Source: Atractiella rhizophila
Lineage: Eukaryota
DNA length: 64,000 nt
Reading direction: 5' to 3'
Assembly: GCA_021432655.1 (NCBI GenBank)
Contig: MU271394.1
Location: forward strand, 1-64,000
Shown: positions 1 through 53,261 of the stretch, in pieces
Layout: each line of letters opens with the position of its first letter
Position numbering within the stretch: the first letter of the stretch is position 1
Notes under the pieces: generated by a model
The model's database searches: none
What the model was told of the DNA's origin: nothing
Seen by the model: only the letters and a program-made list of their open reading frames with translations
Position numbers and translations under genes: made by a program

Positions 1-1130
1 CAAATCATCAAGGTCTCAAATCGAGGATCTGTCTGAACGTACCTTTAGGGATGAAATTGGCGGCACCGCTGGAATGGATCGTGCTGTTGCCTTCTCCTTC
101 GCTGGCGTATCCAAAACTTGGAATCGTGCTCAGTTTGAGGACTCACCTGAAGGATCTATGGATGTCGATGACGAAGGATTGCAAGCAGCTGAAGAAGCAG
201 GAGTAGAACAAAGGCAAGAAGAAGCAGAAGAAGCTCTCACAAGGATTGTCGACAAGCGCGATTTCAGGCGAATGGAGATTGTTGGGCAGTTTAATGCCGG
301 TTTCATCATCGCACGTCGCCGTGCCGCACTTCTGCCCCCAAGGAAAGGTCAGTCCTCTGGGGAGGAGCACGATGACCTCTTCATCGTTGATCAACACGCG
401 GCGGATGAAAAGTACAATTTCGAAAACCTGCAAAAGGAGAGGAAGATTCAGTCCCAACGACTGATCGCTGCAAAGCCTCTCCCACTTTCTACCTCAGATG
501 AAGTAGTAGCGATGGACAACCTTTCAAGAATACGTGACAGCGGCTTTGATATATCGATCGACTACGATGCGCCGGCTGGGCACCGTATCAGTCTCCTCGC
601 CATGCCGATCAGTAAAGATGTAATTTTCGACGATAAAGATCTGGAGGAACTCCTTTCACTCTTGGCAGACCGCACAGGTCGGGAGATCGTGAGGCCGAGT
701 AAAATGAGGAGGATGTTTGCTTCGAGAGCTTGTCGCATGAGCATCATGATTGGAACCACGCTGAAGAAAACGAGTATGAAAAAAGTAAGCCCATTCTTTT
801 TCCGTCTTCTTCGACGGTATCAACCGATATTTCCCAATACAGGTGGTGAGCAATATGGGAACAATGGACCAGCCATGGTCCTGTCCGCACGGTCGTCCTA
901 CAATGCGATGGGTTAGTTCCACTTGCCTTAGCGATCCTTTCATTGATGTAGCACACTCACACTGTCTGAAGCTCGCTTCCCTTCAAGACGAGCGGACCAA
1001 ACGCAACGCCCCTTATCAAAATAAGGCTTTCGGATTCAAGATGCTTACATGGTTCAGAAGGAGTCCGACAGCAGAAGTGCCGGGAAAGGAGCTCAAAGAA
1101 GAGAGCGTGCAGCCTAGCATGGAGCTTTGA
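1..1130 (+). CDS. PMS1: MutL-family mismatch repair endonuclease (PMS1/PMS2 type), C-terminal part; 5' end lies outside the window
   Basis: Motifs GQFNAGFII, DQHAADEKYNFE (endonuclease DQHAX2EX4E), FASRACR and WSCPHGRPTMR. Introns at about 785-842 and 912-971; stop at 1128-1130. Confidence 0.93.
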
Positions 1131-1337
1131 GACTTTTGACGAGGATGGTCTGCTCATTAGTTTGCTTTTTATCAGTGTTGGGTACATTTGGCAGCTCGTT
1201 CGTCGACAGTAACACAGATTAATGTTGAGAAACAACAACTGTAGAGGAAGTGAGTAAGATGCGATGGAATTTTGAATCAAAGGAATTTGGTAGCATGGGG
1301 CAGTCTAAAATTTGCACATTTTGAAAGAGAGAAAATA

Positions 1338-4300
1338 TTACATGGCTCGCACGAGCTGATCGTACTTGGGCGGTTCCTGGCCTTCCTCGTTGACCTCTCC
1401 GGAGATCAATTTGGAGAAATGTGTCTCCACTTCTTCAGTGAAGGTAGTCTGAACACGAGCCTTGTTTCGAGATGATGATTTTGCCGAGTGCTGATGTTGG
1501 TGTGGCTCATGGGAATGATGATGCTCCGTTGTAGCTGTGAAGTATGACGGTAGTCTGGATGTCGAGCAGTGGCACTTCATTCGTGCCAACATCAGCCACT
1601 CTGCCTTCGACAGAGAGAAGGCTGAAAAGACTTACAGAGAGAATTCTTATTGGAGCACCGAGGACGAGATCGAACAGCCTCTTCTTACCATTCACATCGA
1701 GGTACAACTCATCACCTCTCTCCAGGCGAACTGTAAACTTGACAAAGTGATGAATGCTCAGATTCGCCAACGAATGCCTAAAACTGGGTTGCAGGTTCGC
1801 AGTCGAACAATCCGGGATGGGCATCTGGCCTTCTACTGTCCATGGTCCAACTGGATCATACCATTGCGCCACACGTTCGACATCCTCGTTTCCGGCTCTA
1901 TCACGACTCAATGGCTCGAGCAAAGGATTGAAAGCCTTATAATCCCCCTTGAGCTCCTCGATGGGAAACAGGATATCGTGTCTAAGCGCGTTGACGGAGG
2001 TATCAAAGAGCTTGAAGAGAGATGTGTCCACCTTGAGGATGTCACGATCGGGGTGATTCATATCGTAGTATTGCACACGTTGTTCAAGAGTAGCAGATAT
2101 GCGGTAGAGCTTTATCTTGGCCATAGGTGTGATCCTTACGACGAAGGGGACGTTCGCTCCGATACAAGAAGCTTTCGCCCCTACTCCCATCTCGAAACGC
2201 ATCTGCGTCTCCCAGAACTTCTTGATCCCCATCCCCGTCAGTTCCTCCAAATTATCTGTCCCAAGCGGCCTGACGAGTTCGAGTTCTCTCTCGGACGAGA
2301 GGTTGGGATGGAGGACGCCTACACGCTTGACGGTGGCTTTTAGGAAGTAGGTAATGGACGCGTGGTGCGTTTTGATACTGGCGGGGAGGTTAGGGGGTAG
2401 TTGGATTTGTATGGGGTAGGAGTAGACCCCGGGGAGGAAATCGGCAGCGTTCGAATCCTTCCAAGGAGGCTTCTTTCTCCTGGACTTGCTCCTCCCGACG
2501 CTGCTCTCATCCTCACTCTCTGAATCTGATAACGAAACCTTTGACCGACTTCCTGTTCCCGATCCCAATGTTGTCGCCTTACTCCGGGTTGGAGAACTAG
2601 TGTTGTCCTTCTCCCCAGAGGACGGAGCTCGACGGTGCATGATCATATTGACGAGAGAAAATTTATGTTTCCTCTCCCCGTCCCTCTCTGCATCCTTAGT
2701 TTTCTCCTTCACCCTCCCCGCCAAAGTAGCCAATGGATTGCTCCCAGCCCTGCTCCTCCCACCTCCGACCGATTCCTCGCTCTCCGAGCTCCCCAAACTC
2801 ATGTTCGACCTCCCCATCATACCCACGCTTGCATTGCTCACGCTTCCCCCTCCAAGGCTGCTCACACTCACGCTCGTCCCCGTAGTTGTACTCGTGACGG
2901 TGCTCGCGCTCCTATCTGATTGAGCGGCCACAGAAACCGTCGAATCGAGCGCTCTCGTTAAGTTCAAGGACTGGGCGACGAGCGACTGCACCGCTCCGCC
3001 TCCGAAATTTACGGGAGAAGAATCAGAAGGGCTAGTTGGGTGTCTCCATCTCCGTTCGGTTTCGGTTTCTGCTGGGGATGGTTGGGATGGCGTGACGGAG
3101 GGAGGACAGTCCGGGACGAGCGCCTGCAGGCCGATCGGTTCTCCTCTCCCTTGTCCCTCGCCTTGAGGACGTTCGTGCGGAGGAGGAGGCTCGATTTCGT
3201 CCCCGTCTTCTCCCTCCTCTATCGCACTTGTTGATATTGGGAGAGAAGGAGACGGCATTGGATCGCGGTCCATAAGACTAGGTCTTCTCAAAAACGGCAT
3301 AGGTCGAACCGGTGGGACAGGGATGTAGAACCTGCTAAGGGTGTTGGTCTAGGGGTGTGTGGGGATCCAGGAGTTTGAGGAGCTCGGTGGATCTGCTGGC
3401 TCGGGAGGACTGGAGTGTGGGTTCGGGAGACGCGACGGCCTGGAAGGGTGGAGGCAGCTACGACGGGAGATTGCTGCATGTTGGGCAGCGAAGAGCGACG
3501 CCTCAGTGCTCCCGGTCTCGACGGCGCCGTCGTCTGTCGCTCGACTTGCGCACCTCCTTGGCTTCCTTGAGACGGTGCTGGTGCTGCCTCTTGATGCTGG
3601 GGTAGTGGCCGCGGAGGCAGGGTGGTCGACGAGCCTGTCTCTTCCCCTTGTTCCACCAAACCGTTAGCTTGAGCATGACCATTAGGATGAGAATGGGTAA
3701 CGGCGGTTGTTGCCGTCCTCCTCCTCGAAGCGTTTGAATTGGCAACAGCGAAGGATGGCGGCAGGTCGTCGAGGTCCATGCTCTCGTTGTGACGTAGGGA
3801 TGACGGCCCGTGAGAGATACCTGGACCGATGGAGGAGGTTCGGCGGAGGTTGGGGAGATGTGGCCTCGCTGATGGAGATGCGGTGGACGACGTTAATGTA
3901 GAGGTGGATGCGACAGACGTTGGAACAACTTGAGGGATGGGTTCGATTTCGTCCGCTCGGGAGGAAGCGTCGAAGAGGTCGTAAGTTCGATCGATGATTG
4001 TCGTCTCGTCGGGTTTCTCGAATGCTAAATTCCCACTGTTACTTCGCGTTCTCTTCTGCATCACTCTCGTCATCTTCCTCACTCTCGCTTTCGCTCTTCT
4101 CGGGAGGATATGACTCTCTGGAGGATATAACTCTCTACAGTGACCTCTGGAGAACTTTAATCTTTCTCCTCAGAGAAGCGAGGGGATAAGGAAGAAGAGA
4201 CGAAAGAAAGAAAGACATACGATCATCCTTATCCCAATCATTAATCCCCAGCAACCGCACACTGATCCTCTTAATCTTGGTTGCCCGTGTGACGTTCAAC

Positions 4301-4656
4301 TTCAAAATGCCCCTCAAGAGAGCCGGCTGGCCATCTATGTTCATATCATCTTCGATCGTCACCTCCCCAGCACCACCACTCCCACTCCCACTCGCACCTC
4401 CACCTCCGTTCCCTACACCCATCGGATCCTGTGCGGAGAATTCGGGCAGCGCTTCTCCCATCGCTGGACTCATTCCTTCTCCCAATCTCGACCTCAACCC
4501 CAACCCCATTCCGGTTCCTAAGGGGGGACTAGGTCCCGCACTTCCCGGTGCCATTCGGACTGTGGTTCCTCCGCCCTGATGAAGAGTTGGACGAACGCGG
4601 AATGGAGGGAGGAAGACGACGGGTTCCGCGAGGATGATTTGGAGGTTGGGCGACAT
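1338..4656 (-). CDS. Alpha-arrestin (ART/CreD-like Rsp5 adaptor), multi-exon, with an apparent frameshift near 3340
   Basis: N-terminus L-EPVVFL...PALLRGILKL, central FLPGVYSYPIQIQLPPNLPASI...YFLKATVKRVG, arrestin-C region, and C-terminal LPSY and PPKY (PY) motifs. Homologous to the gene at 39642-42975. Confidence 0.85.
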
Positions 4657-5027
4657 CGCTCTGGTAAGCGCTTGAGACGATTTGGATGTGATAGATGATG
4701 GACGACGCGATGTCGACGATGGGTTGTGAGAGGAACGAAGTGGAGAGTTTATATGGGTATGGATATATGGATCTCGTTGACCGGGGAGGATGCCGAGATG
4801 GGTTCTTGTTCTGGAACGAGAGTAACCTTGATGATTGTCGGTGGGCGGAGAGCGAGAGCGAGCGCGAGCCTAGGTAATGCCCTTTTTCAATTACAATCAA
4901 TATTAGCTGATGTTATATAATTTCACTCACTAGAACGTCAACTCAGTGGCAGTTAATCGCCCACCTTGTGAAATAGCTACTGAACTGCTAATACAGCATA
5001 AAGTGGAATTGCGAGCAAATATGGATT

Positions 5028-5052
5028 NNNNNNNNNNNNNNNNNNNNNNNNN
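5028..5052. other. Assembly gap (25 N)
   Basis: Run of 25 n directly visible. Confidence 1.
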
Positions 5053-7795
5053 CACCGCCCAGTTAGGGACCGGCCTTTAAATATTTTGTCGTTCTCTCGC
5101 GTACCTTCTATTAGGCTGAAACTTGGAGGTGGAGGCTTGATAATTAGGATGACTAGTCCTGGGAGCTGCTATGTTATCCGGTTGTCCAGTACCGTATCCT
5201 CTTTAACGTCATAAAGAATATCCACTTGTCAGTCCTCGATGTCGTCCATAGTGTTCCCTATAACACCAATTTGAAGCTGCAGGACTACCAGTCTTAAAGA
5301 AACTTTCTCAATCACTAGTCTTACGGTTGATGGAAGGAGATGCGAAGGGTGAAAACAAAGGGATGCCGCTCGTTCCAACCGTGTGTATATAGGGGGAGTC
5401 AGTACCTCTGAACGAGGTTGCACCAGGTGCTCTCCTTATAGCTTTGCTACTTCCTGTTTATCAACCATTATACCCCCTTGTCTTTGTGCAATGAGTCTAC
5501 TTGATGATGAGAATGGACGAAGTGGATTTCTTCCTGTGTAAGAGAGATTAAGTGGTACCACCGGCGGACAAGGTTCTTAACCAAACACTGCGAATACGAG
5601 TCTATCTTTCACCTTCTAACTCCAAGGACTCCATGTTAGTTCTTGAAGAGGCTTGACTCAGAATACGACCTGAACCGCTACGTAATCTTCTACCAGCTCT
5701 ACGACGTCTACAACCCTTCGCCTGGTAAGATGGTAGCAGTGTGTGACCTTCAGGGGCGGTTTACTTGGTCGTTAAGGTTCTACGATACCGCTAACAACCC
5801 TTGGCTCCAAGTGGACGATAGAAGTGTTGAAAGTGAACGTTAGGTGCCACCGGTCTTTAGTATCTTCGAGATGAAGGACCCGTTTGTCGACGGCTAGCTG
5901 GTCTGAACCAGAGATCTCAAAAGTTGTGTTTCCACTTCCGAATGTACGTCCTGTAGTTCCTATTGAGTTAGAAGCCTGCCAGTCAGCCGAAGCAGACCCA
6001 GTAACTTAAAGTCTTTGCACCAGAAGGAGTACGAGTGTAGGAATAGTAGGAGTTAGGACTTCTATGGTAGTCCCTACAGCTCCGTTAGCTGGCGTATCAC
6101 AGACGGCTTAACGGACTGTTCCTATGGCTGGGACTTAACAAACTCTAACAGACGTTAGTATACGAAGTACCTGGTACACCTCTATAGTTGGGTCTACGAG
6201 GTACGTACTATCTACTAGGATTTTTAGGACCTTCTTTCTAGACACCGTTTCCCAAAGGCTTCGGTAAGCACCTTCTCTGTCCGTAATTGCTCCTACCGAT
6301 AGGGTGGATGGTAGCGGCATTGTTACCTGCATGGAAAGTCTTTAGTGCCTTACCTAAATAAATGCTGTTAGCAACCCAGCATGGCAAATTACGAATACAG
6401 GAAGCCGCGAAATATCGAGTATAGTTACACCTTGAAACGTAGAGGTAGTTTAGTTAGTTCATGGAGAAGTTTATGTAGATGTTTCCTTTACTAGCCCGTT
6501 CGACAGGAAGTATCACGGGCTCCACTACAATCCCATCACCTACTCTAAGTTCTCATGAACCTACGATCTAAGTAGCCTAGAAGACTTCCATTCACAATTG
6601 TTGATGAGGACTCTACTACAATCCCGAATAAACTATGTTAAATGTCGGACAATATCCTAAAAGGTAAAATGAAATGTGGTCGTAAAAGGACACCAATAAG
6701 CTAACCGTCATGTGGAGGGACTAGTCGTAAGACACTGGAAATTAGGAGTCCTACTCAGGGACCCACTGTAAGAACCGGCCTTGTTGTAACGATTTTGTTA
6801 CAACTGTCTCAAGAAGTGAATGACAGCCCTTTTGGGGTTGTAATGACTTCTGGAATGGATAGGATTCCGAGGAGTTAAGGAATGGACCTTCAGTCCGAGT
6901 GCGAGAACCTTTTAGGCCCTCTCTGTTCTTCGGTAGCCGGCATAGATGATACAACGCGGTAGTGTTCCCCTCAATAAGATAGAGGCTTACGAAGACGTAG
7001 TCCAGCGGTCGGGTTTTAGAAAACTCCTATAGGCTTGTCAGCTCCCTTGACAGGTACTCTGAAAGTTCCGATGTACACACCGAGAACCCGAGAATCTTTC
7101 ACTGCTTCTTACCCTAATAACAGAGTTACTTCGGTCGTGTCAGTTCTTACCGAAACGCTACGCTAGAGACAAACAGATGTAGGACGATAAACCTCAGCGG
7201 TCGCTTGGGTCTTCTAATACCCTGCCGGTAGTACTCGTTGAGTCACTGCTAACATTTGTGGAAGATGCCTGTTTTATACCACATCTGTTAGGTTGCTTAC
7301 TCGTTTAATAGTCGGAGACAGAGGAGCTTTAACTTCTAGAGGAGGTTCGAGTACCATTTAGGGATTCATTGAAACCTGATGGTGTTGGGCGTCTCGCTGA
7401 TCTTTCTACCCCTCCGCTCTGTTCCTAATAACCTCTTCTTGAACGTATACTAGCTGGTGATGAAGTGCGTGCATAAGTCTGTCTCAATGGTAGTAATTTA
7501 GACCTGGTTGCAGTACGAATACTGTGCCAACATCTTCGTACCGTTTTACCTTTACCACCTAATAAAAAATAACTACCCGGTCCTCCCTGACCTTTCTGAA
7601 AACAACTTTTGGATAATGAACGGTCCCACGCGAAGTCCCTTTTAACGCGACCGTCACCGGAGAAGGCATAACGACGATAAGACGACCTTCCACCTGCTTG
7701 TCGGGTATGAGCGAAGGCCTAGGGTAATCTGTAACTTTCGACTAAGGCAGACGTCACAATGCCGAGTTTCACTAGTGTCAGTGAAACGGCTCTCC
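5053..7795. mobile_element. Helitron Rep/helicase coding sequence in mirror form (readable only as the complement, not the reverse complement)
   Basis: The complement read left to right gives WRVNPWPEIYKTARERM...YLPLRFPLLFPYGEQGWH...LPSSHTGSPRQM. Rep motif 1 FTTFTCNPRW at 5822-5851, motif 2 EFQKRGLPHAH at 6005-6037, motif 3 KYLFKYIYKG at 6458-6487. GT-AG intron at 6589-6646, Walker A GPGGTGKT at 7576-7599, then IAAILLEGGRTAHTRFRIPL. Confidence 0.95.
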
Positions 7796-8676
7796 ATCAT
7801 TCCTTGCAACTTCCTCAAAGTCCCTTCCTTGAGTTTGTGCTGTCCAACGGTCTCTACTCTCTGTCGAATCTGCTCTTCAGAATCCAGCATGTAGATTTGT
7901 GCGAACCGTTCATCTCCGTCAGAATCAGGTAGCAAAGCTCCAATGCGATGGCACAGCTCCCCTTGAATCCGAAAAGAGTAAACTCCTTGCCCAGGAATAG
8001 GAGGCCGCTTGACTCCAAGAGAAGTAAAGGAAAGAGCGTTATTGTAGGAGCGGATATTTTCTCGAAACTGCTTTGATTCTTGGCTATCTGGGTTGATTAA
8101 TAGCTGATGTAATTCTTCTGGTGGTTCTTCATAAGCAGGAAGAATAATCTTTCCCAGAGAACAACAGTTAGAAAACTTTGGATTCCGCTTAGAGCTCCTT
8201 GCTATCCGTTCCTCGAGCCAATGAAAAGCACCACATTCTGAGCAAAAGGCTTCATTCCATCCCGAAAGTCGGATGGCCTCCACTGTGTGTGGTAAGTAGT
8301 TGAATGCGGAAAAAGGATGCTGATCTTGTCTTGCATCCCGAGAAGCTATCACCGTTTGGTTAGGAAGATTGGGAATCTCAAATCCACCCTCCAGCTGTCC
8401 ATCTGAGAGACTGTCATCGATTTCTTCACGTAAAGGTGGAGGGTCTGGCTGACGTCGGCGTCGGCGTCCTCTAGGAGGTTCACCCTCCTGCTGCTGCATA
8501 CGAATTTGACGGGTCAAATGTTGAGGAGGTGTAGGTTGTGTAAGCTGAAAGCGCTGAGGCAATCCTGCAGTACGTCTCTCTGAACGGCGGGGGAGATCAA
8601 CAGGGCTATCTTCTCGCCTCTGCTGTTGGGCCCGAATTCGTGTCTCAGCACCTTTTTTTTGCTTGGGATGGGGCAT
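7796..8676 (-). CDS. Helitron RepHel N-terminal region in normal orientation
   Basis: CSECGAFHWLEER...KFSNCCSLGKIILP zinc-like motif, FRENIRSYNNALSFTSLG, FRIQGELCHRIGALLP and FAQIYMLD, all typical of Helitron RepHel N-termini. Similarity stops at LRKLQGMM (7796). Confidence 0.92.
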
Positions 8677-8821
8677 AATGAGTCTACTTGGCCATTAGAA
8701 GCATGTAAGAGGCTATATTTCACTTACATGTTAGTCCTTTCCTTCCCTCATGGATGGCAAAGCTAACTTTTGGCATACGACTGAGAAATGATCAAACCAC
8801 GCTATATAAACAAATCACATG

Positions 8822-8930
8822 TATGCAGGGCAATTCTGGGCAAGGCTGCAAATGCAGGGCAACTCTGGGTAAGCCTGCTGCGGCGGAATTTGGTTCATTG
8901 CGGGGCTGCTGCGGCGGAGTTGCAGGGACA
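8822..8930 (+). repeat. Short imperfect tandem repeats (about 28-30 bp) upstream of the Helitron ORF
   Basis: atgcagggg-caattctgggcaaggctgc / atgcaggg-caactctgggtaagcctgc, plus ctgctgcggcgga twice. Confidence 0.6.
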
Positions 8931-10687
8931 GAGTTGGCTATTTTCTTGCTTTCAAGGGTTCGAGTCCGGTACAAAACGCATTTTTGAACCCTTTCAGAAT
9001 AAAATTTCCTTGCAGGTTCAGAAAGGGGCAAGCATATGGGATATGATAGTATAATACATTTCATTCCATTGTGCATGGTGAGGGAGGTGTGAGGGCTCAA
9101 AAGTGCGTCTTATGACTCATGCCAAGAACTGATGAATCTTAGAGTATAGGATGCTTTGGGTGGTTCGACATGAGACTATTATAAACAAGTTTGGCTAATT
9201 GCTTTTGGGGTGGTAAGGCTCAATACTACCAACACTGCTATATTTATTGTTTTGAATAGTTGTTGAAGTGTTGAAGTGTTGAAATGTGCACAATATTCGG
9301 GAGCTATGTTATGTGAATTTCAATGCAGGCGCCGCTCTCACTCTATTCATAACATAAATTATCGCTTTGACTTCGACATAAGCGCTAGCGTGCTTCTTGT
9401 ACTCTCGAGGCATTCGTGCAATAATCCAAAAATGATACCACCAGCCCACCACAGAGAGTCCTAATGGGTCAACCGAACGAGAACCTGCCCATCGAATTCG
9501 AACTGTCCCGTTCGTTCGAAACCTCCATTCCATCTGGTTCAGACGTGGGCGACCTGTTTCCCTCTCCGAAAAAGCGACACTCCGCAGCCCATTCGTCGTT
9601 GAGAAGATCGTGTAGTGCGTCGACCTCTTGTGTGGTGTGTGAAATTCAGGAAAGACAGCCGCTGGAAGAACCTGGCACACTCGTCGTGATCCTACAATGG
9701 GAAACCCCGTCGCGTCGCTGCCAGCTAATACCTAACGAATATTGAGCATCAAGGCTAAAGAACGTGCGCATAAACGTACCTCTGATATGCTTTGGCCGCC
9801 AGTGATGACCTAGGGTTTACCAATAGTCTTATTGCCTTCCTGTCGATAAATCAGCTCACGAAGCATGCGACTTGTTATTTTTTGATCATAAACTGACTCA
9901 AAATGTTTCGTTATCTAAGTCACATAAGATTCCTTTATATTTAAGATTCTTTGAAATGTTATTGCCTTTTGACTGGGTTCGATGTATCCCTCGCCACAAA
10001 TTTCTTTATGCCTCTCGCTAACTTTCAAAGAGCTAACTTCAGCAACTGGAGCTGTAACGGCAAACTCGTGTTGCAACCGAGCTTTCAAACTGCGACACTA
10101 TCTAAGCTGAGGGCCATGGTCTGACTGTTTCAAGAATGGTAAAAAAGTGAGGGTACTTGTTGCAACTGGGCGAGGCATGTCGCCTCAAGTCAGAATCATT
10201 GAAATGGCTACGCGGTTTATTTGCAATGATCATATATCCAGAATTTCATTCCTGCTTAGGTGAGAGCAACTACGAACCAACAACCGCAATGTGAAAGTTA
10301 ACAGCGCTTACAGAGAGCACAGTCAGTTGCGATCTGTGCTATCCCACAATCGCGTGGTCAATACACTCATCTTGCTTCATTCTCGATGCTGAGAAGAGTG
10401 GTTGATAGAGCCCATGTCGCCTGGTTAAAAAGTCTACAAGGAACTTGGCAACAAAACTAACCGCATTCAATCGTCAAAGGGGTTGGACTAAATAAATAAA
10501 CAAATTGTCGATTTTAAGGTTTGACCCGCTAGCTTTCAACCAACCGGCGACCTCAAGGCAACTTCCACAAGGCAACCTCAGACGTCCACTGCCAGCGGGG
10601 CTCCGCACTTTTCTTTCTTTTTCTTTCTTTCCTTTTACTTATCTACTCCACTTCCTGTACCGTGGCATTCTCCGGATTGCAGCAGAC

Positions 10688-13374
10688 ATGGCTTACATCG
10701 ATACAAATAGTCAGCCATTTGCAGAGTTGGCATCTGCTCCGAGCACCAGTGCGAAGCAGAAGGATCACTATAAGGAGACTGATCAGGTTGAGCATGCGTG
10801 AGTCCCCCTCTTCATTAACGTTCTTGTTATTTTTGGTGACTATTGCTACAATTTTGTTCATCTTCACTCAACTTTTTGGTCGTGTGAACAGAGACATAGG
10901 ACGGCAACGAATCTTCCAAGACTCCTCCTCCCCAAACGACGATGAAGTCCCAACCTCGGATCCAGATCGAGACCACGAAATCGGGAGGACGCACCATACT
11001 GCTCACTTGCAGGATCCACATCCCAGAAGAGGAGCTGCTGCGTAAGTTCATCTTCCAGTAGCTGCATCATCTCCATAAACTTGAACTAAAGCCGTGATCT
11101 CAATGTAATATAGGAGGAGACCGACACCCCTCTTTGGTGGTCCTGCAGAGGATGATATCGAATCGAGACCTTTGGGAACGGTGGATGGGAATACGAATCC
11201 ACCTCACGTTTGGGAACATAATGTGAGGGTCCATCCTCAAAAACCTACTTTCTTCGACAAGTGTGTCACTGTGCGTATCCCATCCTTCGATCTCTCCTTT
11301 TCAAGCTGACTCTGCATTTCTGGTATGTAGGAAGGCTTTCAACTCGGCAGCTTCTTGGGCACCTCCACTTTCTTTTTGCTCTATGTAGTCTACGCTACGA
11401 CGGTCTATATCATCCATAAGGTCGGTCGGAACATTCCTTCCCCTTCACCTCTCTTCATGTCTACTTCTCCCTCCTCCCCTAGGTGAATGCTGAGCGAAAG
11501 ACGGACGGGACAGCTCAACCCATTTCACAAGCTCCCTCCGGGTCCGCCTATCAAGGGGAGCGAGTACGAGAAGCGGATCACCGGCGAACGGTTCAGGTAC
11601 GTTATTTATCCCCTCAACTTCCAATCAGTGGAATTGAGGATTCTTCGTTGACACGATGTGCACAGTGCGAGACCGGAGTATTATATCAGGTATTGGGGAT
11701 ACGAATGCGAGCTTGTCGAAGTAGAGACAGACGATGGATTCCTCGTCAGGTGCGTCCTATAGCGTCTTTGTTCCCCTTCCAGAATGTCTTCAGAATCTCT
11801 CCGAGTGGATGAATGCTGATGCTGGTGGACAGGTTGCACCATATCCTCCCAAAGAGGCATAAGGACGGTTCAGCGCCGTCGATCAAGGGAACACCAGTTT
11901 TGATAGTCCACGGTATACTCTCCAGCTCAACCACTTTCGTCGTTAACGAAGAGAGGAGTCTCGCGTTCTATTTGTTGGAGTCTGGATACGACGTCTGTAT
12001 GTCTCCTTCTCCCGCCCTCCCAGTCTTCTTTCGCACGAGGCTCACTGATTGATGTTGGTGTTGATGGAATGGCAGGGCTAGGAGATATCAGAGGAAATTT
12101 CAAAATGAAACACAAAACCTTCTCTCGCCTCAATCCACGTTACTGGAGCTGGAGCATCAAGTGAGTTCTCTCTCTTTCTCCTCCAAAATCCAAACAAAAC
12201 GGATGGACCGGTTGATTGATTACATCATGGTTTGAAGGGAAATCGCGATTTACGATTTGCCAGCGATGATCACACACATCTATCACCACACCGGAAAGAA
12301 GGTCGCGTACGTTGGACACTCCCAAGGAACCGGCACCCTCTTTCTCTCTCTAACGAGAGGATTGAGACCTGATGTCGGGAAAATGTTGAGGTGTTTCGTC
12401 GCCCTTGGTCCTGCCGTGTATGTCTCTCTCATTCACAATCTGCGAGTGCAGAAGAAGTGGTCAACGGCGCGTTTTTTGACGTTTGTGGTGGTGGTGGGAA
12501 CAGGTATGCGGGACCGGTCTTGAAACAGTTCCCTTTCAATATCCTCCGAAAGTTCAAGAGCAGAAAGCTCTGGGGAGTGTTGATGGGCGAGAGGGAGTTC
12601 ATACCCATCATGTCCCTTGTCGCTGGCTACCTCCTCCCGTACGTTCACCATCCCCTTCTTCCCCCTCCTACAGCCTCCTACAGCCGCTGATGGAAGAACA
12701 CAGGTCATGGGCTTTTGGGCATCTAGCTATGCCCGTCTTTTTGGATCTTTTCGATTGCTCCCCTCAGGTCAGTCTTTCCTTCCCCCCTCCTGATGGACAC
12801 AGTGCATATTTTCCAAACAGAATTGGGTCCCTCGTCAGATCCCGAAAATGTTTCGCGCCGTCCCCGTCCCGAACTCATCTGAACTTCTTTGTTAGTTCTT
12901 TCCCTCCTTCCTTATCGAGAGACACTAATTTGGGCTGGCGGGAAGATTATTACATGTCCACCTTCTCTTGGAAAGGCTGCATCTTCAAGACCGACCACCT
13001 CGAACCATGGTGGGACCATAACTTCCCTCCTCTCATGATTGCATACGGAAAACTCGATACCTTGGTCCTCGGCGAGCCTCTGGTGCAGAGAATCAAAGAG
13101 CGCGAACCTGACGTTAGGTTTGTTGCCCATATTATATTTTTCTTCTTTGTACTAGGAGGCTGAGGGTTGTGGGGGTTAGGTTGGTCAAGGTAGTCGCGTT
13201 GGAGAATTACGATCATTTGGACCTTACTTGGTGTAAGTCTTCGCTCAATATCACTGCGAAAGAGAAGGATTGTACTGATGACTGTGTGATTGATGTGACT
13301 TGGGAACAGCTGTGGATGCAGTGGAGAGGGTGTTCGTGCATATCAAGGACACCATCGAGGACTCCGCTCCTTGA
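10688..13374 (+). CDS. AB-hydrolase lipase / sterol esterase (TGL1/YEH-like), many exons
   Basis: VETDDGFL, PVLIVHGILSSS...SLAFYLLESGYDV, YDLPAMITHI, nucleophile elbow YVGHSQG, GKLDTLV and YDHLDLTW. Confidence 0.88.
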
Positions 13375-14189
13375 TCCTCTATCCATAGTAGCTAGTGGCT
13401 TGGTCGACCAAACGATCGACTAGTTCACCTTGTTGGATTCGAGAGGGCTTATTTATGCTTCCTGTTGTGTGCTTTTCAGGGTTGTTCACACTCATGTTGA
13501 AGCTGGATGTGGTTGGACTGTTCCGAGCCTTTGGGATTATTTATTTTTCGATGGTTTCTGTCTGTTCGCTGGAAACATCTTACCTGGAATGCTGCTTGCT
13601 ATAACAAAACTATGACAAAGGACGGATGATAAATCGCCGAGAAAGAGAAGGTGAACATGTCAATATGTCGACATAGGAGAAAGGCGATATCCGATCAGCT
13701 AGCGCGGCAATTAGGCCATGCGCATGCGTTCTCATTCACAATCACCAAAAACGACCACTCCGCCTCGGATCCTCCTTTCCACCTTATCCCCTCAGTCCCC
13801 TACGTTACCCTCGCCCTATCCATCTTTCGCTGGCACGTTGCCATTTCACCTGAAACGAGGGGTTTCCAGTTAAGATTCCTAAATTCGACGGAGGAAGTCC
13901 AACAGCGACACAATATTCTTAACCCAACATCTTTGTATCATTATTCCTTCTGCATTACCATTCTTCAAGAGAAACGTCGATTAGAAGTCCAATTGCGATT
14001 TAAGCGAAACTACGAGGCGGGGAGCAGTATTTAGCAGTCGTGTCGGTAAGTTTTTCGGTTATGGTTATGGAGGGTTCGGGGTTCAGAGGGAGTGCAGGAG
14101 AGTTTTTTCGGTCAGAAAACGACTAACCATCTATATTACCTCGCTTCGAACTCTCTCGACGCACGAAACGATTTCCAAGTAGTCTTGGG

Positions 14190-17100
14190 ATGGCTGCAGT
14201 CGCCACCTCTCCTTCTCCTTCCTTTCAACCTCTCAACATCGATATCCCCCCATCTTCTCTCTCTTTATCCTCTCCTTCCGTCTCCTCACCCAACATCGCT
14301 CGTTCTACACCGGCTTCAGTTTCAACACCTACCGGAAGCGCAAACTTGAATAAGATGTCTGCTCCGATGTCGATTGCGTCAGGATCAGGACGGAGGACGC
14401 CGTCGGCTGAACATGCCTCGAATCCCTCTTCACCAGTAGTCGAGGGATCATCGAGCCAACTTTTTCCGAGCAGAGTGAACTCTTCACCGTCGAATTCGAG
14501 TACGTCGCAGGGCTCTCTGTCTGCTGGTGCGTCATCCGCAGGCCCCTGAGTTGCACATCTGCAAAATGGTATTGATCCACGTATGGATGTGGTTAGGTTC
14601 TTCGACAGGCGGTCGCTCTCCTTCACCAGCCAGCTCGGCACGGACCACGGTCCCTCCCTCACCTGCGACCGCCAGCTCGTCAACCCTCTCGGTTCACGCC
14701 CCGAACTTCCAGCCATCGTATTCCCATCCTCAACCGTTTCCCTCCTCCCATCCACCTCCTCAGATTACGCCGTTTCAGCATCCGCATCCTTCACAGCATA
14801 TGAACGTAGGATACCCGTATCAGATGCCGTTTCATCCGCAAGGCAATCCCGTCTTCTTCAATTTCCCCTCACAGGCACACCCAACTCCGCCATCCCACCC
14901 ACACTCCTTGCCCCCACAAGGACATTATGGCGCTCCGGATCCGAACGTGTTGATGAACCTTGCATATCACCAACAGGCTCAGCACATGCAACAGCAGATG
15001 CAGCTTAGAATGCCCGTCAACATCAATGGGCAGGGAAGTCAACCACCAAGTCCGAGCGCGAGGAACGTAAGCGGGCCATCACATCCTGGTGCAGCTCAAC
15101 GGCAGCGGACAGGGAGCAGTTCGAGCCAACAACCCTATTATTTTGATCCACTTCACAGTCCATCTGGACCAGGAAGGGCATATGGCCCTCCTTCTCCTTC
15201 AATGTACGGAGGAGCAACAGGAGGACCACCCCCACCCTTCGTCAATGTAACCACCGGTCCAGGTTTCACACCTCCGATACCTTCCCCACACCAACAGAAC
15301 CAAGCCGAGCCCCCCTTCTCCGCTTATCGTCCTCAACCTACGAGCATTCGACCGCTTCCTAATCAACCTCCTGCTCCATCTCCCCCAGCTGCGGTACCTG
15401 ATTGGAAAGATTGGAAAGCGGCTCAGTATTCCAAGACCCCTGCTCCTCCCCAGCCGCTCTATGCTCAGCATAGCGCAAGGGGATCGACGAGCTCTGTTAA
15501 TTCCACTTCAGACAGAAGTAGCGATAATCGTCCCTTGCCCCCTGGTGCCATTCGCGTCAAACCTTCCGAAGTAAGGAACGATCCATCCGCCAGACCTCAA
15601 TACCCTCGTGCACGAACGGACAGCCAGAGTTCGACAGGTAGTCGATCTAGTTATCGACCATCTGAACGAGAGAGGACGCCATCGATGTCGTCCACAGCTT
15701 CTTCGAGACCGCCTCCCCCCAAACTCACCCTCTCCAATTCTGCGGGAGTTACTAAGCCTTCTCCCCTGTCCCAACAAGCGTTCAGGAGCGGAGAGCCTGC
15801 TGCTATTGGGACCGGAAAAGTGGATTTCGATGGTGAGAAGGGAAAGCCGAAGAAGACGATCACGGGAAAATTGAGGAGAGCGCTTTCCATGTCTTCGTTA
15901 CAGCAGATGGAGGGCGGAGATCCCACGTCCCCTTCGTCCTCTTCGAAACGAGCACCTCCTCACGCTCCTTCTGCAGGTGCGGGGAGGAGATTCGGGCTTC
16001 TCAATTCGAAGATGAATTCATCCACGGATAACATCTCGATCTCTTCGACGGTCTCGAGCGCTTCCGTCATGATTCGGAAGATTGGGAATATGGCTAAATT
16101 GGGTCGGAGGGGAAGTCTGATGAGCCTTGGATCTATGTTTAATAAAGATAAAGAGACGGATAACGAGGATGGAGAGACGACGACTTTGACGGATTCTAAG
16201 ACGAAGAAGAAAGATAAGAAGAAGTCGGCTGCTGCCATCGCTTCCGTCTCTCATGTCACTGCCGAGCTAGACAAAGGAGCCAATCCTACCCTCGTCAATG
16301 GAATGACCCCTGCTGAAGCTCTGGTCAAGAAGCACCAAGCGATGTATGCCGAACAAGAAGCTGCCGCTGCTGCTGCTCGTGGTCACGGACGAACGCCATC
16401 AACCGCTTCTTCTGTGGTTTCTACAGCTACTACTGGCACGATTGTCGGACGCTCCAGGACGGCAGAGGACGCTATCGATGCTGCAAAAGCGAGGGCAGCG
16501 GAAAAGGAGAAGGATAAGTTGAAGAGCAGGAAGCCGAGGAGCTGGGGCTTTGGCTCTTTTGGTGGTTCTTCAAGCGGACATGGAGCGCCGAAAGGGGAAG
16601 ACGACGAAACGATCAGGTTGTCGGTCGATCAGCAACAAGATCCCTTTGCCCATTCTCGCCATCCGACACGCGAGTCGTCCGCTTCCCAAGTTGAAGTTCT
16701 TGCCCATAGAACGTCGGTTGATGATGTGGAGACAGAAGAACCAGAGGAGACTGACGAGTATGAGGAATCGAACCTTAAGAATCTTAGCTCGCAAGTATTG
16801 CCCCATCGACAACCACCCAGACCTATCCGAAGTATTTTGAAGAGTGCGTCTTCCTTGATCCACCAGTATCTACTAACTCCTGTTGAATAGGACAACCGTC
16901 TGCCAACGATCCTACGAATGAACTTGCTCCTCCAAACATGCTCGGGAATCGAAGTCGCGCTAATTCCTACGACGCTCCTCATCAGCAAGGCGCCCCGAAC
17001 CAACCTGGTGAGAAGGCGACACTCGTCCAACTCATCCCATCTGAAGCACAAGTTGACGGTCTCGTGCCCTCCGAGTCGCGACGACAGGATCAACAACCAC

Positions 17101-32535: not shown

Positions 32536-33950
32536 TTAGTAGGCGCTTTTCTTTGCATACCTTTGGAGGAAAATATCGGCTTCGAGGTGCTCTGCTCCTT
32601 CCTGTTCGACGGTCAAAATAAAATTGAGATCTCCTTTGTCACCGTCGGCTTGTATACGACTGAAACCTGGTGGCAGAACGCCACCTCCAGATGTCGTCTC
32701 GAAAGGTGTTCCCCAACCGAAGTCTAGTTTGGGTCCCTGAAGATTGAAGCGTGACCAATTCGTCATGATCACATCTCCTACAAAAACGGCAGTTCGAGGA
32801 GGATTACAGCGCCGAGCTGCCTCGAGGAAAGACATCTTGTGAATGAGAGCTTTGGGTGACATTTGCGTGTTGAGCGCTTTCCTGATCTCGACAGCGATGA
32901 GGGAGGCACATTCATGTGTCGGAGAAAGTAAGTGGCTGCGAGGGACGGTCGTTGCAAATAGGGGGTTGCAGTTGCCGAAGTACGGTTCCCGTGCTAGGTC
33001 TGGAGGAAAACGATCACGAAGATTGGAAGCGCTGATCAGGGTTTCAGTTGAAGAGGGGTTTGCTTTAGCTACCTTGCCATTATGACGAGCACGGGCAATG
33101 GCTCCCCAGATGAGAGTTGCCAAAGCATCCCCAGATGAGATCCAATCCTCTCCAGAGTTTGGAGAGAGGTCCTTCTTGAGCTGCTCTAGGTTGCTTTTCG
33201 GAATTTTCCATTTTGTTATGCTGGTGGGAGGCAAGGAGAACCCAGGAAGAGAATCGAGCAGAGTAAAACCTGGTGGTGGCGTTTCAGCGGGAATTTCACT
33301 CGGTACTCCAGGGAAGTAACGCTCGACATCGTGTAACCAATTCTTCGGGACCGTGGTGAGATTAGGAGCCTCGCCACGAGCGGTGGAAGCCCACAATTCG
33401 AGGAAATCGAGGCAACCGTTGAGATCTGCGACTTGGTGATGTAGCGAAGAAGCGACAGCTATAGTTCCACAGGAAAACTGCAGGAAAATTGATAGGTGCT
33501 TGTATGGAGTCGGGAAAAACTTACCGACGTCACCTTCACCGCGAACGTGCTGGATTCCGGTGGCAGAACCAATATTGGTCTTGGAGAAACGTCGTCGTTG
33601 TCTCCAGTAAATGGAACGTCTTTCTCTTCGACTAAAAACGGAGTTCCAGGTGTGCTGTCTCTGTCAATCACGATATAAGTTTCTCCATCCTCGTCGACCC
33701 GCACAATTCCGGAGACAGGGGGATAAAGCTCAAGTGCTTCTGCTAGCGACCTTTTCAAATTGAGGACAACTTCGTCAAAGCTGACATTGCTCGGAAGAGG
33801 GGCAAAGAAACGATGTAAGCTGATGTGCACGGGTACACTGATCAAGTCGAGCGCATGGAGTCTGATCTTGGAGAGGACGAGAGGTAGGTTGAACTTCGAT
33901 GTCGGGAACACATTGAACTGTTGAATTTGAGTGATTCCCTGGCGCGGCAT
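32536..33950 (-). CDS. BAHD/transferase-family CoA-dependent acyltransferase, one intron (33478-33524)
   Basis: LKRSLAEALELYPPVSG, spliced FSCGTIAVASSLHHQVADLNG (HxxxD), YFGN, TNW and LDFGWG. Confidence 0.92.
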
Positions 33951-39641: not shown

Positions 39642-42600
39642 TCAATCATCGTCTGTCACGACTTCCGCATACGCTGGAGGCCTTGCCCCAGCAGCGTTGA
39701 TTTCGCCTGCACAAATAAGGCAAATGTCAGCTGGACGCCAAGAGAGACAAGATCAGTAGAGTGTACGAACCTGAAACGAGCCTGGCGAACTGTAATGAGT
39801 GGTTCAAGGCTCGTTCAGCGGACCTCAAGTCTACGGGTGCTGTTGGGGTTGTCGGTGATTGAGGAATTGTATGGGCAAAGGCTGAGCCAGAATGTTGAGG
39901 ACGCTCAAGGTCTGAGAGCTCGTGATGGTGAAAGCCATGGTCTACGAGAATTGGCTGAACAGCTCCGCATTGATGAGACGCTTGGAGGTCTATCGTCCCA
40001 TCTGCGAAATAAGTCGGTAAGTGATTCTGTGAACATCGACACTATAGCACAATGAGCAAACTGTTGCTAGGACTTGAAAAGGAGGGACTAACCGAGAGTA
40101 TATGCAGTGGAGACTCGATAATAACATCCCAAAGCTTTCTCTGTCCTTTCGAATCAAGATGATCATCATCTCCACGTTCAACTCGAATAACAATCCTTAG
40201 AAGATGCGAGATCGCCAACAGAGCCTTCTCATGCACCAAGGAGAAGTGAAGGTTGGACTGGCAATCCGGAAGCTGGAGTTCTCCTTCAAGGATCCAGGGT
40301 CCCAAAGGATCCGCCAACGAGGGGACCTGGGTCTCATCGCCCTCTCCAGCGACGAATAATTTCTTCAACGGGCTCGTCTCGAACGCATCTTCTTCATCGC
40401 TCGTGATCGGCAGAATCGCCGTCCGCTGCTCCCCAGGGATCTCAGCTTTGAGGAGTTGGAAGCGCTTCGGTCCTTCGTGCCTGCTGATCTTTTTTGAGTG
40501 CGCGAAATAGTCCACTTTCTCTTCCAAGACGACCAGAATTCGATACACCTTCACTTTGGCGAGTGGGTCGAGGCGGATCGAGACCGGGATCTTCGAACCG
40601 ACGCAGAAGGACTAAACACGACTGTTGAGAAGAATTATTGGAGAGTGACGGTGAATGACTTACCTTTCCTGACAATGCAACCATATATCGCATCTGCGTC
40701 TCCCAGAACCTCTCAATAACAATGCTCTCCACAGCTTCTGTGCTTTCATCCGAAGGGCACGACACAAGATGAACCTCCATTTCGCTCTGGAGGTTCGGAG
40801 TCAAGACTCCAGCGCGCTGGACGTATGCTTTCAATCGATAGACGACTGCTCCGAAGTTACAATGCAGCGTTGGCGGCAACGACGACGAGACGGGGATTTG
40901 AACTGGATAGGTATACGTCCCGGGACGGAACTCAGTCCAAGCGTTCTCATCTTCTTTCTCTTCCTCCTCTTCCCTTCCCTCGTGTCCCGCTTTTCGACCA
41001 TCTCCCATCCCTGAACCTGTTGACGGTTCCTTGCTGAGTAATGCCTCTTTGATCGCTCTCAACGTCTTCGTCCTTCCCCTCGAAGACTGGTCATTCTTCC
41101 CCGTCAGGCTAGTCGTCGTATCCCTACTTTCGCGTTCCGGACTACTCGGTCTCCTCCCACCGCTTCCGCCTTCCAACATGCTCTTCAACTTCTCTTTATC
41201 GTTCCCAAAGATCTTGCTCAAACTAAACCTACTCTTCTTCTTCCCCCCACCACTCGCTTTCTCCTCACTAAACCTCACCGTCGCCCCATTCCCACTCTCG
41301 CTAGGTCTCCTTCCCGACCCCGCAAACGAGAGCGAAGTGCCGGTGGTGGTGGAAGTGGCGGATTGGAACAAGTGTCCGTTTCCGATCGATCGTCCGCGTT
41401 CGCGCTCGAACGAAGAGACGGTGGATCCAGGCACAGGAGCGGACTGATGTCCGTCCATCTGACCCGAGTCTTCTCGGGTAGTCGAAATCGTGCTTCCGGA
41501 CCCACTGCTCTGCGAAATGTCGCTCCCACGATGTCCTCCGTTCCCATTCGTCATCGCCAACCTGGACGATGGCGGCGGAGTGCCGGTCGAGGAGGAGGTC
41601 GCGTTTCGTGACAGCGGAGGGAAGAGGGAGGCGGGTGAATCTGAGGAGGTCGACGCTTCATTGTACCCCGGTATACGAGCATCCGAGCTCCTTCGACTGT
41701 CGCTTCCTGCGGTGGTGGAGGGAGAAGAGACGAAAGGATTGATCCAGCTCGCCCTCTTCTTCCCTTTCTGCGCGCTCGTCAATCCTTGAATGGGAGCGGT
41801 CGCAGGCCCGTTCCCCACCGCATCCCGGGACACATCCGTCACTATTCGCCGTATTGGGACTTGAGACGATGCGCGCGGAGAGCTCGCGAGACTGAACGAC
41901 ACGTCGGGGTCGTCCCTTATTCCTGGCCCGATGGAGACGGCGCGTCGGAGGGTGTTCTTGGATTCGGAGGCGGAGAAGAGGACGTGATTCTCATCGATGA
42001 TCGTGCGCTCCTCGAGCACTTCCAAGCGATGGGAGCCGATACCTGTAGAAGCGAACGCCGAAACAGACAGTGGAGTTAGAACAAAACTTCGGATTTCGGA
42101 TTTCGGATAATTTAGAATTGGAACATTTGAAATGACCCGAAGGAGAGGACGAGATTGGAGGAGAAAAGCAAATTGCCAAATTGGCTCTCTCGGCACGTTT
42201 GTGCGGTTCCCAAGAGGAGGCGAGGAGAAATGTACTAAAAGCCATGAATGGACTGAGTGCATGGAAGAGCGTATGACCTCTGGCCAAGTGTGCCAATCGG
42301 CACATGATGAATGCTTCTCTTACAAAGCTGTCGTCAGCAGCAACGGTCAAGACAGCTCCGTCACGAGTCACCGACAGGTCACCAACGCAAACGTTCGTTC
42401 ACCGAAGTGAAGTGCCTCCGACTCAGCGAAAAATGAGGAAAGGACGCACCCTCTGGCCAATCTGTATGAGACTTGCCCATCAATCGCACTCCCACCTTCT
42501 TGATCCTGCTCGGTTTTGCAAGCGTGAGCGTAAGCAAACCGCGAAGAATAGCTGGCGGAGAATCGTCTTCCTCCTCCCTCTCCCTCTCCAACCTCCCTCT

Positions 42601-42975
42601 CTCGTCCTCGAATTCCGCTCCGATGCCATCGTCCCTGTCCCGACTATCCGTTCCCACACCTCCCCTCTGTCGACTGGGGCTTCTAGACGAATTGCCTGCT
42701 CCACCCCTGCCAGACGTCGACGGCACATCTGCAGCACCACCGCGCGCAGGCGAGGCGGAGGAGGGCAGCCCGTTGGGCAGGCGCATGGTGCCGCCGTAGA
42801 CGGAGAACCAGAGGTCCTGCTCGTTCCTCACGTTCCTCCTGCCGATGTCCTCCGTGCCTGCGTTCCTCTGGGCGAGGCGTCGCGCATTCTGCCTGTTCCG
42901 TCGATAGTTCTGCCGATCGGAGCGGAGGAAGACGACGGGTTCAGTGAGGCGGAGCGAGAGCGTCGTCGGCGGCAT
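39642..42975 (-). CDS. Alpha-arrestin (ART/CreD-like), complete, multi-exon
   Basis: LRLTEPVVFL, PAILRGLLTLTLAKPSRIKKV, WTEFRPGTYTYP, IERFWETQMRY, arrestin-C region and terminal PPAY motif. Confidence 0.9.
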
Positions 42976-43266
42976 GTGCGCGCGTGCTGGTGCTGTCGAG
43001 TCAGTAGTTGCAGGGGAAGAAGCTGAGGAAAAGCTGGTGAAACTGGGGAAGCTGGAGAAGAGATGAGGTCGTCGTTTTGTTGCGGCCGAAAGACCGTGAG
43101 GCGCGTGGGTGTCATATGACTCAGAATACGCTAATGCATGCTTTCCACTTTCGGCCTTCTTCTCTCCGTCTTGTGTTCATCGTTGCGCATCATCGCACCG
43201 CATCGTCACCATCATCCTTTGTTTTTATTTCAAAGCCACACTCGTCTTCTTTCTCTATTCGTCAGT

Positions 43267-48231: not shown

Positions 48232-49161
48232 TTACCTCTCCTCTGACCGAATCTTATTCTTAAGGTTATAAAAGTTCTGTCTATACTCTTCAAACCCCTC
48301 GGGAAGTCCTGCACACCAAATCTCCGTGAACTCGTCCAAGATGATCTGCTCTTCTCTAGTCGGCGTGCCTTCGAAGAACGGTTTGGCGAGGAGACATTTT
48401 TCAACCGTTCCAAACCCAAACCAATCGTTGTTCGCATCTCCCACTTTAGCGTCGCCATCGAGCCAACCGTCCCACGAAGGCTTCACCAACTTCTCCCAGA
48501 ATTTGGTCGCAGAATCGAAATCAATAATTACAACCGCAGTTAAGTTGCCGTCGGCATCAAAATCAAGCATGATATTGGTGGGAGAGATGTCGTTATGAGA
48601 GAACCCGATAGAGTGGATGTGTTCGAGCCCTTTGCCCACTTCTTCCAGCACAAACGTAGAATCTATCCTCTTATTCCGATATATAGCCTCCCACAAGCTG
48701 ATTTGATGCTTCTCGAAGCAAAGACCAGTAACAAAGGTGCCATCTGTCACGTGACCGTGATAGCGACAGATGTTAGGGTGAGGACTGCGCGAAATGATGT
48801 CCAAAGTTTGCAATTCGTGAGAATACAAATCTCGAGTCCGATAGGCATCTGGTGCAGTTGTGTCCGTAACTCTTTGGAAAGGCATTCCTAGCAAGAAAGG
48901 AGTTTTGATGAAACCTTTTGAAGCACAGTCGGGAGAAGCGATAGTCATGTCTTCGAAATCAACCAATCGGGGTAAGTAGAACTGCCTGTCGATTCGTGTT
49001 CCAACGGTGCACGCTTGAATATACGAATTGTCGACACGAATTGAGGGGTCTTCTATGTCGAAAAGGTATACTTCACCGTCTTCTTCATAAAGAACCTCGG
49101 TATGAAGGAAGACCATGGGAGGGCCATCCCAACACCTTTGCGCCTTGAGTAATGTTCGCAT
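48232..49161 (-). CDS. Intronless atypical protein kinase-like protein, copy 1
   Basis: FIKTP (beta-3 Lys), HELQTL, HPNICRYHG, GLEHIHSIGFSHNDISPTNIML and IIDFDS. Start taken from agreement with copy 2 (MRTLLKAQ). Confidence 0.85.
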   Translation of the reverse strand: MRTLLKAQRCWDGPPMVFLHTEVLYEEDGEVYLFDIEDPSIRVDNSYIQACTVGTRIDRQFYLPRLVDFEDMTIASPDCASKGFIKTPFLLGMPFQRVTDTTAPDAYRTRDLYSHELQTLDIISRSPHPNICRYHGHVTDGTFVTGLCFEKHQISLWEAIYRNKRIDSTFVLEEVGKGLEHIHSIGFSHNDISPTNIMLDFDADGNLTAVVIIDFDSATKFWEKLVKPSWDGWLDGDAKVGDANNDWFGFGTVEKCLLAKPFFEGTPTREEQIILDEFTEIWCAGLPEGFEEYRQNFYNLKNKIRSEER

Positions 49162-49866
49162 GCTAGACAAACATCTCAGGTATAGGGCACATTCGCATGA
49201 AGATTTGAGCAATACCTTGAAGTAGGCACAAGTGTACCTCCCGAGAATGGTGGTGCACGGAATCAACTCACGATGGCTCCCTGAGGCCTGATTTGCGACA
49301 GAAAAGGCGGTGGGTCTGAAGGCAAGGAACGTTAAGAATAAAAGAGGCTGTGCATTAGTCACAAGGTTGCGGAATCGAGTTCTCGACATGAGAATCATGG
49401 AAAGCACGACCGGTAGAAGGACAAGGCTTCTGCATCGGGACATACACACTAACCGTCAAGTGCCCTTTTGTTCACCAGAAGTGTGCTTCGCGACGCGAGA
49501 GTCACTTCAGGCGAATAAACACAAAAGCTCCATGCCGAAAGTCTATCAACTGATCTGATTCCGAATTCACGCAGCCTTTTGTTGTGGTGAATAAACCCCG
49601 CTGATTGGAACTGAGCCTGGGAATTACACAACCAAGACAGTGTGCGCATGCCTGAGGGTTGAAGTCTCTTGTCAAGTCGGGCAAGCGAAGAAGGAGATTA
49701 TTTTGGGTCAAGGAATGCCTTGTCATGCAGGCAAGTGAGCAGCACGGAATCGACTGGCCATCAGGTACCGGATCATAAAAGGGCCTTTAGTCAACAGGAT
49801 TTAATCTGTTTCACTCGTCTGTCCTACACCACCCGATCTTTCGTCTAATTTCCAAGTCCTGCAATC

Positions 49867-52338: not shown

Positions 52339-53261
52339 GCTAATGAAAATCAGCCTACGAACCACGATACCCTACTAAACGTACCTGAATTTCACTCGAT
52401 TTCAGTCTGAATATGGACACGTCACTATTGTAAGTGTCGAGAAGGAAGACCCCACTGAGTTGCGGTGGAGAATGATGTATCTAAAGGGGGACGGCATCAG
52501 AATCATGGAGGCTGTGCCAGGGTCCGAAGTTCGCGAACCCAGCTTGTCACACGGTTTGATTAATATCGATTCCGGTCTGATAAGGTGATGCCATGTTAAG
52601 CCCATAGTCCGACAAACAGAAAGTCCGCATGTGTCTGATCGATCATTCCAACTGCAAGTATTCTCCCACAGCAAGCTGCCAAGGGCAACAAAGGAAGCTC
52701 GAGCATGACATGGGATGGGAACGGCCGCAAAAAAAAATCGGCGATTAGTATATTCGAAGTCGCGAGTATACTTTGAAAGGCCAGCGAAAGACCATGCCCA
52801 TGGAAACATCAATCCAGAATCAGAAAGAACAGCTGTGTATTGCTTCAGAACCAGCGAGAACAGAGATGCTTTGCACCCCCAAATTGCTGTGAAAATTGAG
52901 GAGTATACCACGCGAAAGGCTCATTGAATTTCTCATGTAGAAGCGTTGTTGCACAATTCAGGTTCCAAGAGATCCGATCCGCAACAGTAGGTCTAAACAA
53001 ATAATGATATTGTTCGTGATCAGCTCGAACATCGGAGTAGGGCAAATGGACAAAGCTTTTCTAGGTCAAAAAGGTAAGCATGGAAAGGGCGTGGGGGTTT
53101 GTCGTGCCAATTGTACATATAAGAAGTCAATGCAACTCGTTGAGAGCGGTCACCTCAAATCGTATCTCTCCATCACTCCTGAGGTTTTTAGAATCCGGTG
53201 CAACAATGGTAAGCACTTGAATCTGCATTGTAACATACAGAGTCGTGAGCGAGCGTCGTAA

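Follow-up and report, generated by a model that had tools for sequence, protein, structure and literature searches.

What is the 2.7 kb of DNA that separates a scaffold gap from the abrupt end of a Helitron gene in the genome assembly of Atractiella rhizophila? The question arises at the left end of contig MU271394.1 (NCBI GenBank assembly GCA_021432655.1), of which positions 1 to 64,000 of the forward strand, hereafter the window, were analyzed. The first-pass annotation of this DNA, made from its letters and a list of open reading frames, had offered an unusual answer, namely that the block is the missing continuation of the neighboring gene, reversed without being complemented. As for how it arose, that annotation favored an orientation error of the software and mentioned, as the alternative, an undescribed copying process working in parallel orientation.

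Reading frames and word composition of the block

The window contains a single run of N, and the block begins directly after it. With 2743 bases, it has exactly the limits proposed in the first-pass annotation:

5028–5052, no strand: run of 25 N, an open scaffold gap.
5053–7795, no strand: block with its letters in reverse order but uncomplemented; turned around at its position, it continues the minus-strand Helitron gene that breaks off at 7796 (as indicated by reading frames, tblastn, 5-mer score, and the loose end of read contigs at 7795).

The six normal frames had been said to hold no credible gene, and indeed the longest stop-free frames of the block are of 67 codons on the plus strand and 97 codons on the reverse complement; reversal alone gives 120 codons at most. 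Complementing without reversing, termed here the complement-only reading, opens two frames of 486 codons (5054–6511) and 376 codons (6613–7740). In the window outside the block, the longest complement-only frame has 232 codons and the longest reverse-only frame 204. The first of the two long frames is the one that had been reported to run from 5054 to about 6500. Regarding the second, a frame does exist where the first-pass annotation placed it, but its end is at 7740, with homology as far as 7731, and not near 7630. Other complement-only frames were considered as candidate mirrored blocks and rejected, namely that of 232 codons at 42506–43201 and those of 219 and 210 codons at 3051–4129: they are without a Helitron match, and their 5-mer scores are positive.

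The latter scores come from a test of orientation that makes no use of proteins. Strand-symmetric 5-mer frequencies were trained on the rest of the window, and windows of 1 kb were scored by log-likelihood as written versus reversed. Every one of the 120 1-kb windows lying clear of the block has a positive score (mean 102, sd 32, minimum 30), and the five that lie mostly inside it score from −65 to −163, with two edge windows at +26 and +38. Summed over its whole length, the block scores −314.7 as written and +314.7 when reversed, the value for 20 other blocks of 2743 bases being +303.5 ± 60, with a minimum of 190. The block is native-looking DNA written backwards, and it is the sole such stretch in the window. 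In a change-point run, for which positions 4000–9000 were left out of the 5-mer training, the cumulative score has its minimum at 7789, 7 bases from the junction with the normal sequence; its peak is found at 4900 instead of 5027, a displacement that is taken as noise in an AT-rich stretch.

The Helitron gene on both sides of the junction

The identity of the hidden gene was approached by tblastn with four full-length Helitron proteins of Microbotryum (P0002, P0003, P0004, and P0006) as queries. Against the window as given, all four match only 7786–8262 on the minus strand; against the whole window reversed without complementing, they match only 5081–7731. When the block alone is reversed in place, residues 68–705 of P0002 (E 3.7e-106) and residues 143–775 of P0006 (E 1.1e-109) are each covered by one alignment that crosses 7795/7796, followed by a second, colinear alignment with residues 736–1087 of P0002 and 806–1164 of P0006. 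At the junction, the printed alignment passes without a gap from ...KLQGM to MWRVNPW..., the same residues as in the exact junction LQGMMWRVNPW that the first-pass annotation had read from the letters. A boundary placed one base away would put the two parts out of frame, and for this reason the right-hand edge of the block is fixed to the base. Hence the in-place reversal restores colinear, in-frame homology across the edge of a block that adjoins an assembly gap, as is to be expected of an artefact, and the earlier description of the block as the missing continuation, reversed without complementing, holds. The parts of the gene are as follows:

7796–8694, minus strand: N-terminal part of the same Helitron protein, in normal orientation (open frame 7654–8694, protein search).
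5054–6511, no strand: complement-only frame of 486 codons, the Rep part (HUH endonuclease, Helitron_like_N), aligned with P0002 248–705 and P0006 275–775.
6512–6612, no strand: disrupted link between the two frames, with two +1 frame changes and in-frame stops.
6613–7740, no strand: complement-only frame of 376 codons, covering the sequence between the domains and then ~60 residues from the start of a PIF1-like helicase, aligned with P0002 736–1087 and P0006 806–1164.
7741–7795, no strand: terminal 55 bases of the block, which follow a stop and show no homology (tail translation; homology ends at 7731), and which in the true order abut the gap.

All three HUH Rep motifs and the PIF1 Walker A that had been announced for the block are present in the translation:

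5822–5845, complement-only frame: Rep motif 1.
6023–6037, complement-only frame: HUH motif.
6461–6487, complement-only frame: Y motif.
7576–7599, complement-only frame: Walker A.

In the homologues, the Pfam family Helitron_like_N occupies residues 391–560 of P0002 and 446–630 of P0006, both of which are spanned in full by the reversed-block alignments, and PIF1 occupies residues 1027–1224 of P0002 and 1105–1289 of P0006, with the alignment ending at residue 1087 of P0002. The Rep domain is therefore complete within the block, and the PIF1-like helicase domain is present only for its first ~60 residues, Walker A among them. A Helitron_like_N domain with its three motifs, recognized here from the alignment to homologues and from the motifs themselves, is one of the marks of an autonomous RepHel gene. 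By contrast, the translation of the normally oriented part (7798–8694, minus strand) gives no hit to any Pfam family, so that its identity rests on homologues only: a protein search with this translation returned, among 2395 candidates, seven proteins at E ≤ 0.001, of which six are from Microbotryum, and these Microbotryum matches bear PF14214 (Helitron_like_N) with or without PF05970 (PIF1).

Between the two complement-only frames, the first-pass annotation had supposed one indel and an intron. The frame break is indeed found there, in the link at 6512–6612, but it needs two +1 changes, and the intron would be of 25 nt: running from GTAAGT at 6589 to AG at 6613, it restores the frame and is too short to accept, and the alternative that ends at AG 6623 (35 nt) leads into the wrong frame. 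One ~12-residue segment of the Microbotryum homologues is matched twice, by successive stretches of the link in different frames, and this double alignment at 6520–6640 suggests either that a short piece was duplicated locally in this copy or that two different copies were joined in the extending sequence. In the complement-only reading, a 10-base word is repeated in 6520–6640.

Taken with its block reversed, the locus reads as an ordinary autonomous Helitron on the minus strand, whose gene would run from ~8694 through 7796 into the block and be ended by the gap inside the helicase domain; the 3′ half of the helicase and the 3′ terminus of the element are absent from the assembly. As in the RepHel genes of Microbotryum (P0002, P0003, P0004, and P0006), an N-terminal region is followed by Helitron_like_N with the three Rep motifs and then by a PIF1-like helicase with Walker A, of which only the start is present here, and the proteins are colinear over about 1000 residues at 35–42% identity. 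Unlike in those genes, two thirds of the gene here are written backwards, the helicase is cut after ~60 residues, and the frame is disrupted at 6512–6612.

Read contigs at the locus and its surroundings

The public sequencing runs, designated X1 to X4, were consulted in the form of Logan contigs, which makes for thin evidence from reads, and were compared with the window over 3001–9900; X1 and X2 represent one sample. The share of words sampled from positions 1–10000 of the window that is present in each run is 0.53 for X1, 0.52 for X2, 0.35 for X4, and 0.09 for X3, and 375 contigs of X1 and 563 of X2 could be matched over 3001–9900. Contigs of all four runs are found on the left flank of the block, and those of X1, X2, and X4 also on the right flank (7796–9900), X3 giving no cover to the right of the block. 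Between them, over 5071–7600, the summed contig depth is zero in 11 of 11 bins in each of the four runs, which is what an artefact predicts, but holes in contigs prove nothing.

More can be learned from contigs that reach the edge of the block. Coming from the right, three contigs of X2 agree with the window as far as 7795, beyond which their letters no longer match it. By by-eye comparison, 28 of the 30 letters in their run-on consensus (agreement 0.87) are those met on reading the block backwards from letter 31 to letter 2, and the loose end appears at 7795 rather than at 7796 because the first letter of the block equals base 7795. At both mismatches, the window has C and the contigs have T. 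These two differences, together with the very large pile of contigs on 7831–9210, suggest that the contigs stem from other copies, and they probably derive from copies of the repeated element elsewhere and not from this very one. Left of 7796, the molecules of the sample carry in normal orientation what the assembly writes backwards, a statement for which the evidence is good as regards the family and indirect as regards this copy.

Across the gap, a contig of X4 reproduces 5020–5027 and goes on beyond this point with letters that resemble neither end of the block, which implies that the gap is real and still open, with sequence missing from it. The possibility that the mirrored sequence extends to the left of the gap was considered and rejected: the 1-kb window at 4001–5000 scores +126 in the 5-mer test, and contigs cover this flank in normal orientation up to 5019.

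The same contigs bear on the right-hand limit of the element. Helitrons begin with 5′-TC and end with 3′-CTRR preceded by a subterminal hairpin, and they insert between A and T. In three runs, contigs stop fitting the window at 9128–9152, including six contigs of X2 at 9152, and the summed depth falls from 19,482 (X1) and 53,638 (X2) in the bin 8981–9210 to 152 and 105, respectively, in the bin 9211–9440. From this we infer a probable 5′ end on the minus strand:

9150–9152, minus strand: probable 5′ end of the element, with A at 9152 and TC at 9151–9150; contigs stop fitting near there.

Over 7831–9210, the summed contig depth amounts to thousands, vs about 170–250 in the left flank, although such depth is not a copy number and serves only as a hint of a repeat. 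Within this part, the depth at 8981–9210 stands several-fold above that of the remaining Helitron sequence (about 1,000–15,000), and the 5′ leader of the element may occur in a far greater number of copies, perhaps non-autonomous ones, or there may be an overlap with another short repeat. Moreover, where the contigs depart from the window on the Helitron part, at 7847–9067, they mostly do so by transitions, and over all of 3001–9900 the differences in X1 include 22 G>A, 16 C>T, and 14 T>C. The prevalence of transitions fits diverged copies of the Helitron family that may have been affected by RIP.

The left flank, which is single-copy, shows discrepancies of another kind. Contigs of all four runs have, at full depth, an extra G behind 3319 and A>G at 3655, and insertions are found behind 4565 and 4815 in X1, X2, and X4 and behind 4959 in X1 and X2. 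Such differences have the appearance of wrong bases and indels left uncorrected in the assembly, and some fall inside a gene with arrestin domains. Directly left of the gap, three consecutive open frames lie on the minus strand (4135–4869, 3288–4169, and 1507–3348), the last of which has Pfam matches to Arrestin_N (E 5e-09) and Arrestin_C (E 1.5e-11), and 1507–4869 on the minus strand is probably one intron-bearing fungal gene for an arrestin-like protein. The surroundings of the Helitron consist of ordinary fungal genes. Elsewhere in the window, the following features were recognized by their domains, the first two being genes in normal orientation:

32536–33663, minus strand: open frame of the Pfam Transferase family, an ordinary gene (E 5.5e-19).
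48232–49455, minus strand: open frame with a protein kinase domain, an ordinary gene (E 5e-12).
53188–54362, minus strand: fragment of an LTR-retrotransposon pol gene (RT_RNaseH, E 7e-30; Integrase_H2C2, E 6e-18).

Origin of the reversal and its consequences

The origin put forward in the first-pass annotation, a software orientation error at gap extension, is borne out by the start of the block at the gap edge, by the gene that its in-place reversal restores, by the 5-mer score, and by the X2 contigs at 7796. We are confident that the block is a computational orientation error made while a contig end was extended into the gap, and not a feature of the organism's own DNA. The course of events would have been as follows. 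The left end of the right-hand contig, at 7796, would have lain inside an autonomous Helitron copy with a scaffold gap to its left, and a step of gap extension or gap closing would have added 2743 accurate bases overhanging that end. An overhang taken from a minus-strand alignment needs to be reverse-complemented; if only one of the two operations was applied, the bases would have been written reversed, or equally complemented, instead of reverse-complemented, and the 25-N placeholder would then have been left for the remaining gap. On this model, the plus strand of the organism would consist of 1–5027, a sequence of which the letters are missing, the reverse of 5053–7795, and then 7796 onward.

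That gap extension was the faulty step is what we infer from this arrangement. The long open frames in the block indicate that the inserted sequence was accurate and not a raw noisy long read, which fits some gap-filling tools and not others. As for the program, 25 is the default minimum gap length in the PBJelly utilities (PMC6240028), and the length of the N run is a pointer to PBJelly too weak to name it as the one responsible.

Other explanations were weighed against this one. That the complement-only frames and their motifs are due to chance deserves no credence: tblastn E values go down to 1e-109, the matches are colinear with the neighboring normal part, complement-only frames elsewhere in the 64 kb do not exceed 232 codons, and the reversed window has no other match. 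A reversal of computational origin but from another source, be it manual editing, a fault of format or coordinate handling when the record was prepared, or a decoy block inserted deliberately, is a minor contender that we consider improbable. The window does not identify the program behind the block, and reversal without complementing is a standard deliberate operation for making decoys in repeat searches, as stated in a preprint (bioRxiv 10.64898/2026.04.14.718546); still, the block is limited by the edge of a gap on one side and by the in-frame resumption of a gene on the other, a pattern such as results from the extension of a contig end, and a decoy or handling fault is not expected to respect both.

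The most far-reaching reading is that the mirror block is real in the strain, a Helitron copy made with parallel polarity by an undescribed process tied to rolling-circle replication. The sequence does stand in a public assembly, and the X2 contigs at 7795, with two mismatches in 30 letters, may have come from copies other than this one. Nevertheless, no known enzyme can make such a block, and its frames of 486 and 376 codons are legible only in a direction that no ribosome or polymerase uses, so that nothing would have kept them open; in addition, the block lies exactly at an N gap, and contigs that extend to 7796 show the normal orientation. The 5′→3′ polarity is maintained by polymerases, ligases, and recombinases alike, and to our knowledge no process writes a reversed, uncomplemented copy. 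We found no support for the parallel-orientation copying that the first-pass annotation had offered as an alternative, and we hold a biological origin of this kind to be extremely improbable.

With an error of gap extension as the preferred origin, the block can be placed among known phenomena. Like ordinary mis-orientations of assemblies, it is a block-level fault of orientation at a boundary between contig and gap. It differs from an inversion, real or mis-assembled, in that the latter is a reverse complement and can be read in the six normal frames, whereas the present block is only reversed, a state in which no molecule can exist. Mirror repeats, i.e., H-DNA-forming homopurine/homopyrimidine tracts, also read the same when reversed without complementing; these, however, are short, of low complexity, and symmetric in themselves, while the block extends over 2.7 kb, consists of complex coding sequence, and lacks a partner copy in the window. 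A further likeness is that to reversed, non-complemented decoy genomes, which serve to set false-discovery thresholds in repeat searches (bioRxiv 10.64898/2026.04.14.718546): the string operation is the same, but there it is deliberate and its product is kept apart from real sequence, whereas here it stands inside a genome record. Among the titles listed by a literature search, none concerns a reversed, uncomplemented error in assemblies, which is weak evidence of its being unpublished.

The practical consequences concern the public record. The assembly contains 2.7 kb to which no read can be mapped and which gene finders cannot read; the mirrored block conceals a transposon gene and yields sequence of “orphan” appearance. 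If a gap-closing program is at fault, the same error is to be expected beside other gaps, and in assemblies from the same pipeline as well. Such blocks can be screened for cheaply, either by the likelihood of 5-mers forward versus reversed or by tblastn on the reversed sequence. The database record of this block needs to be corrected; as to its meaning for the organism, the mirror block is a writing error and not a biological feature, and it is without bearing on biology.
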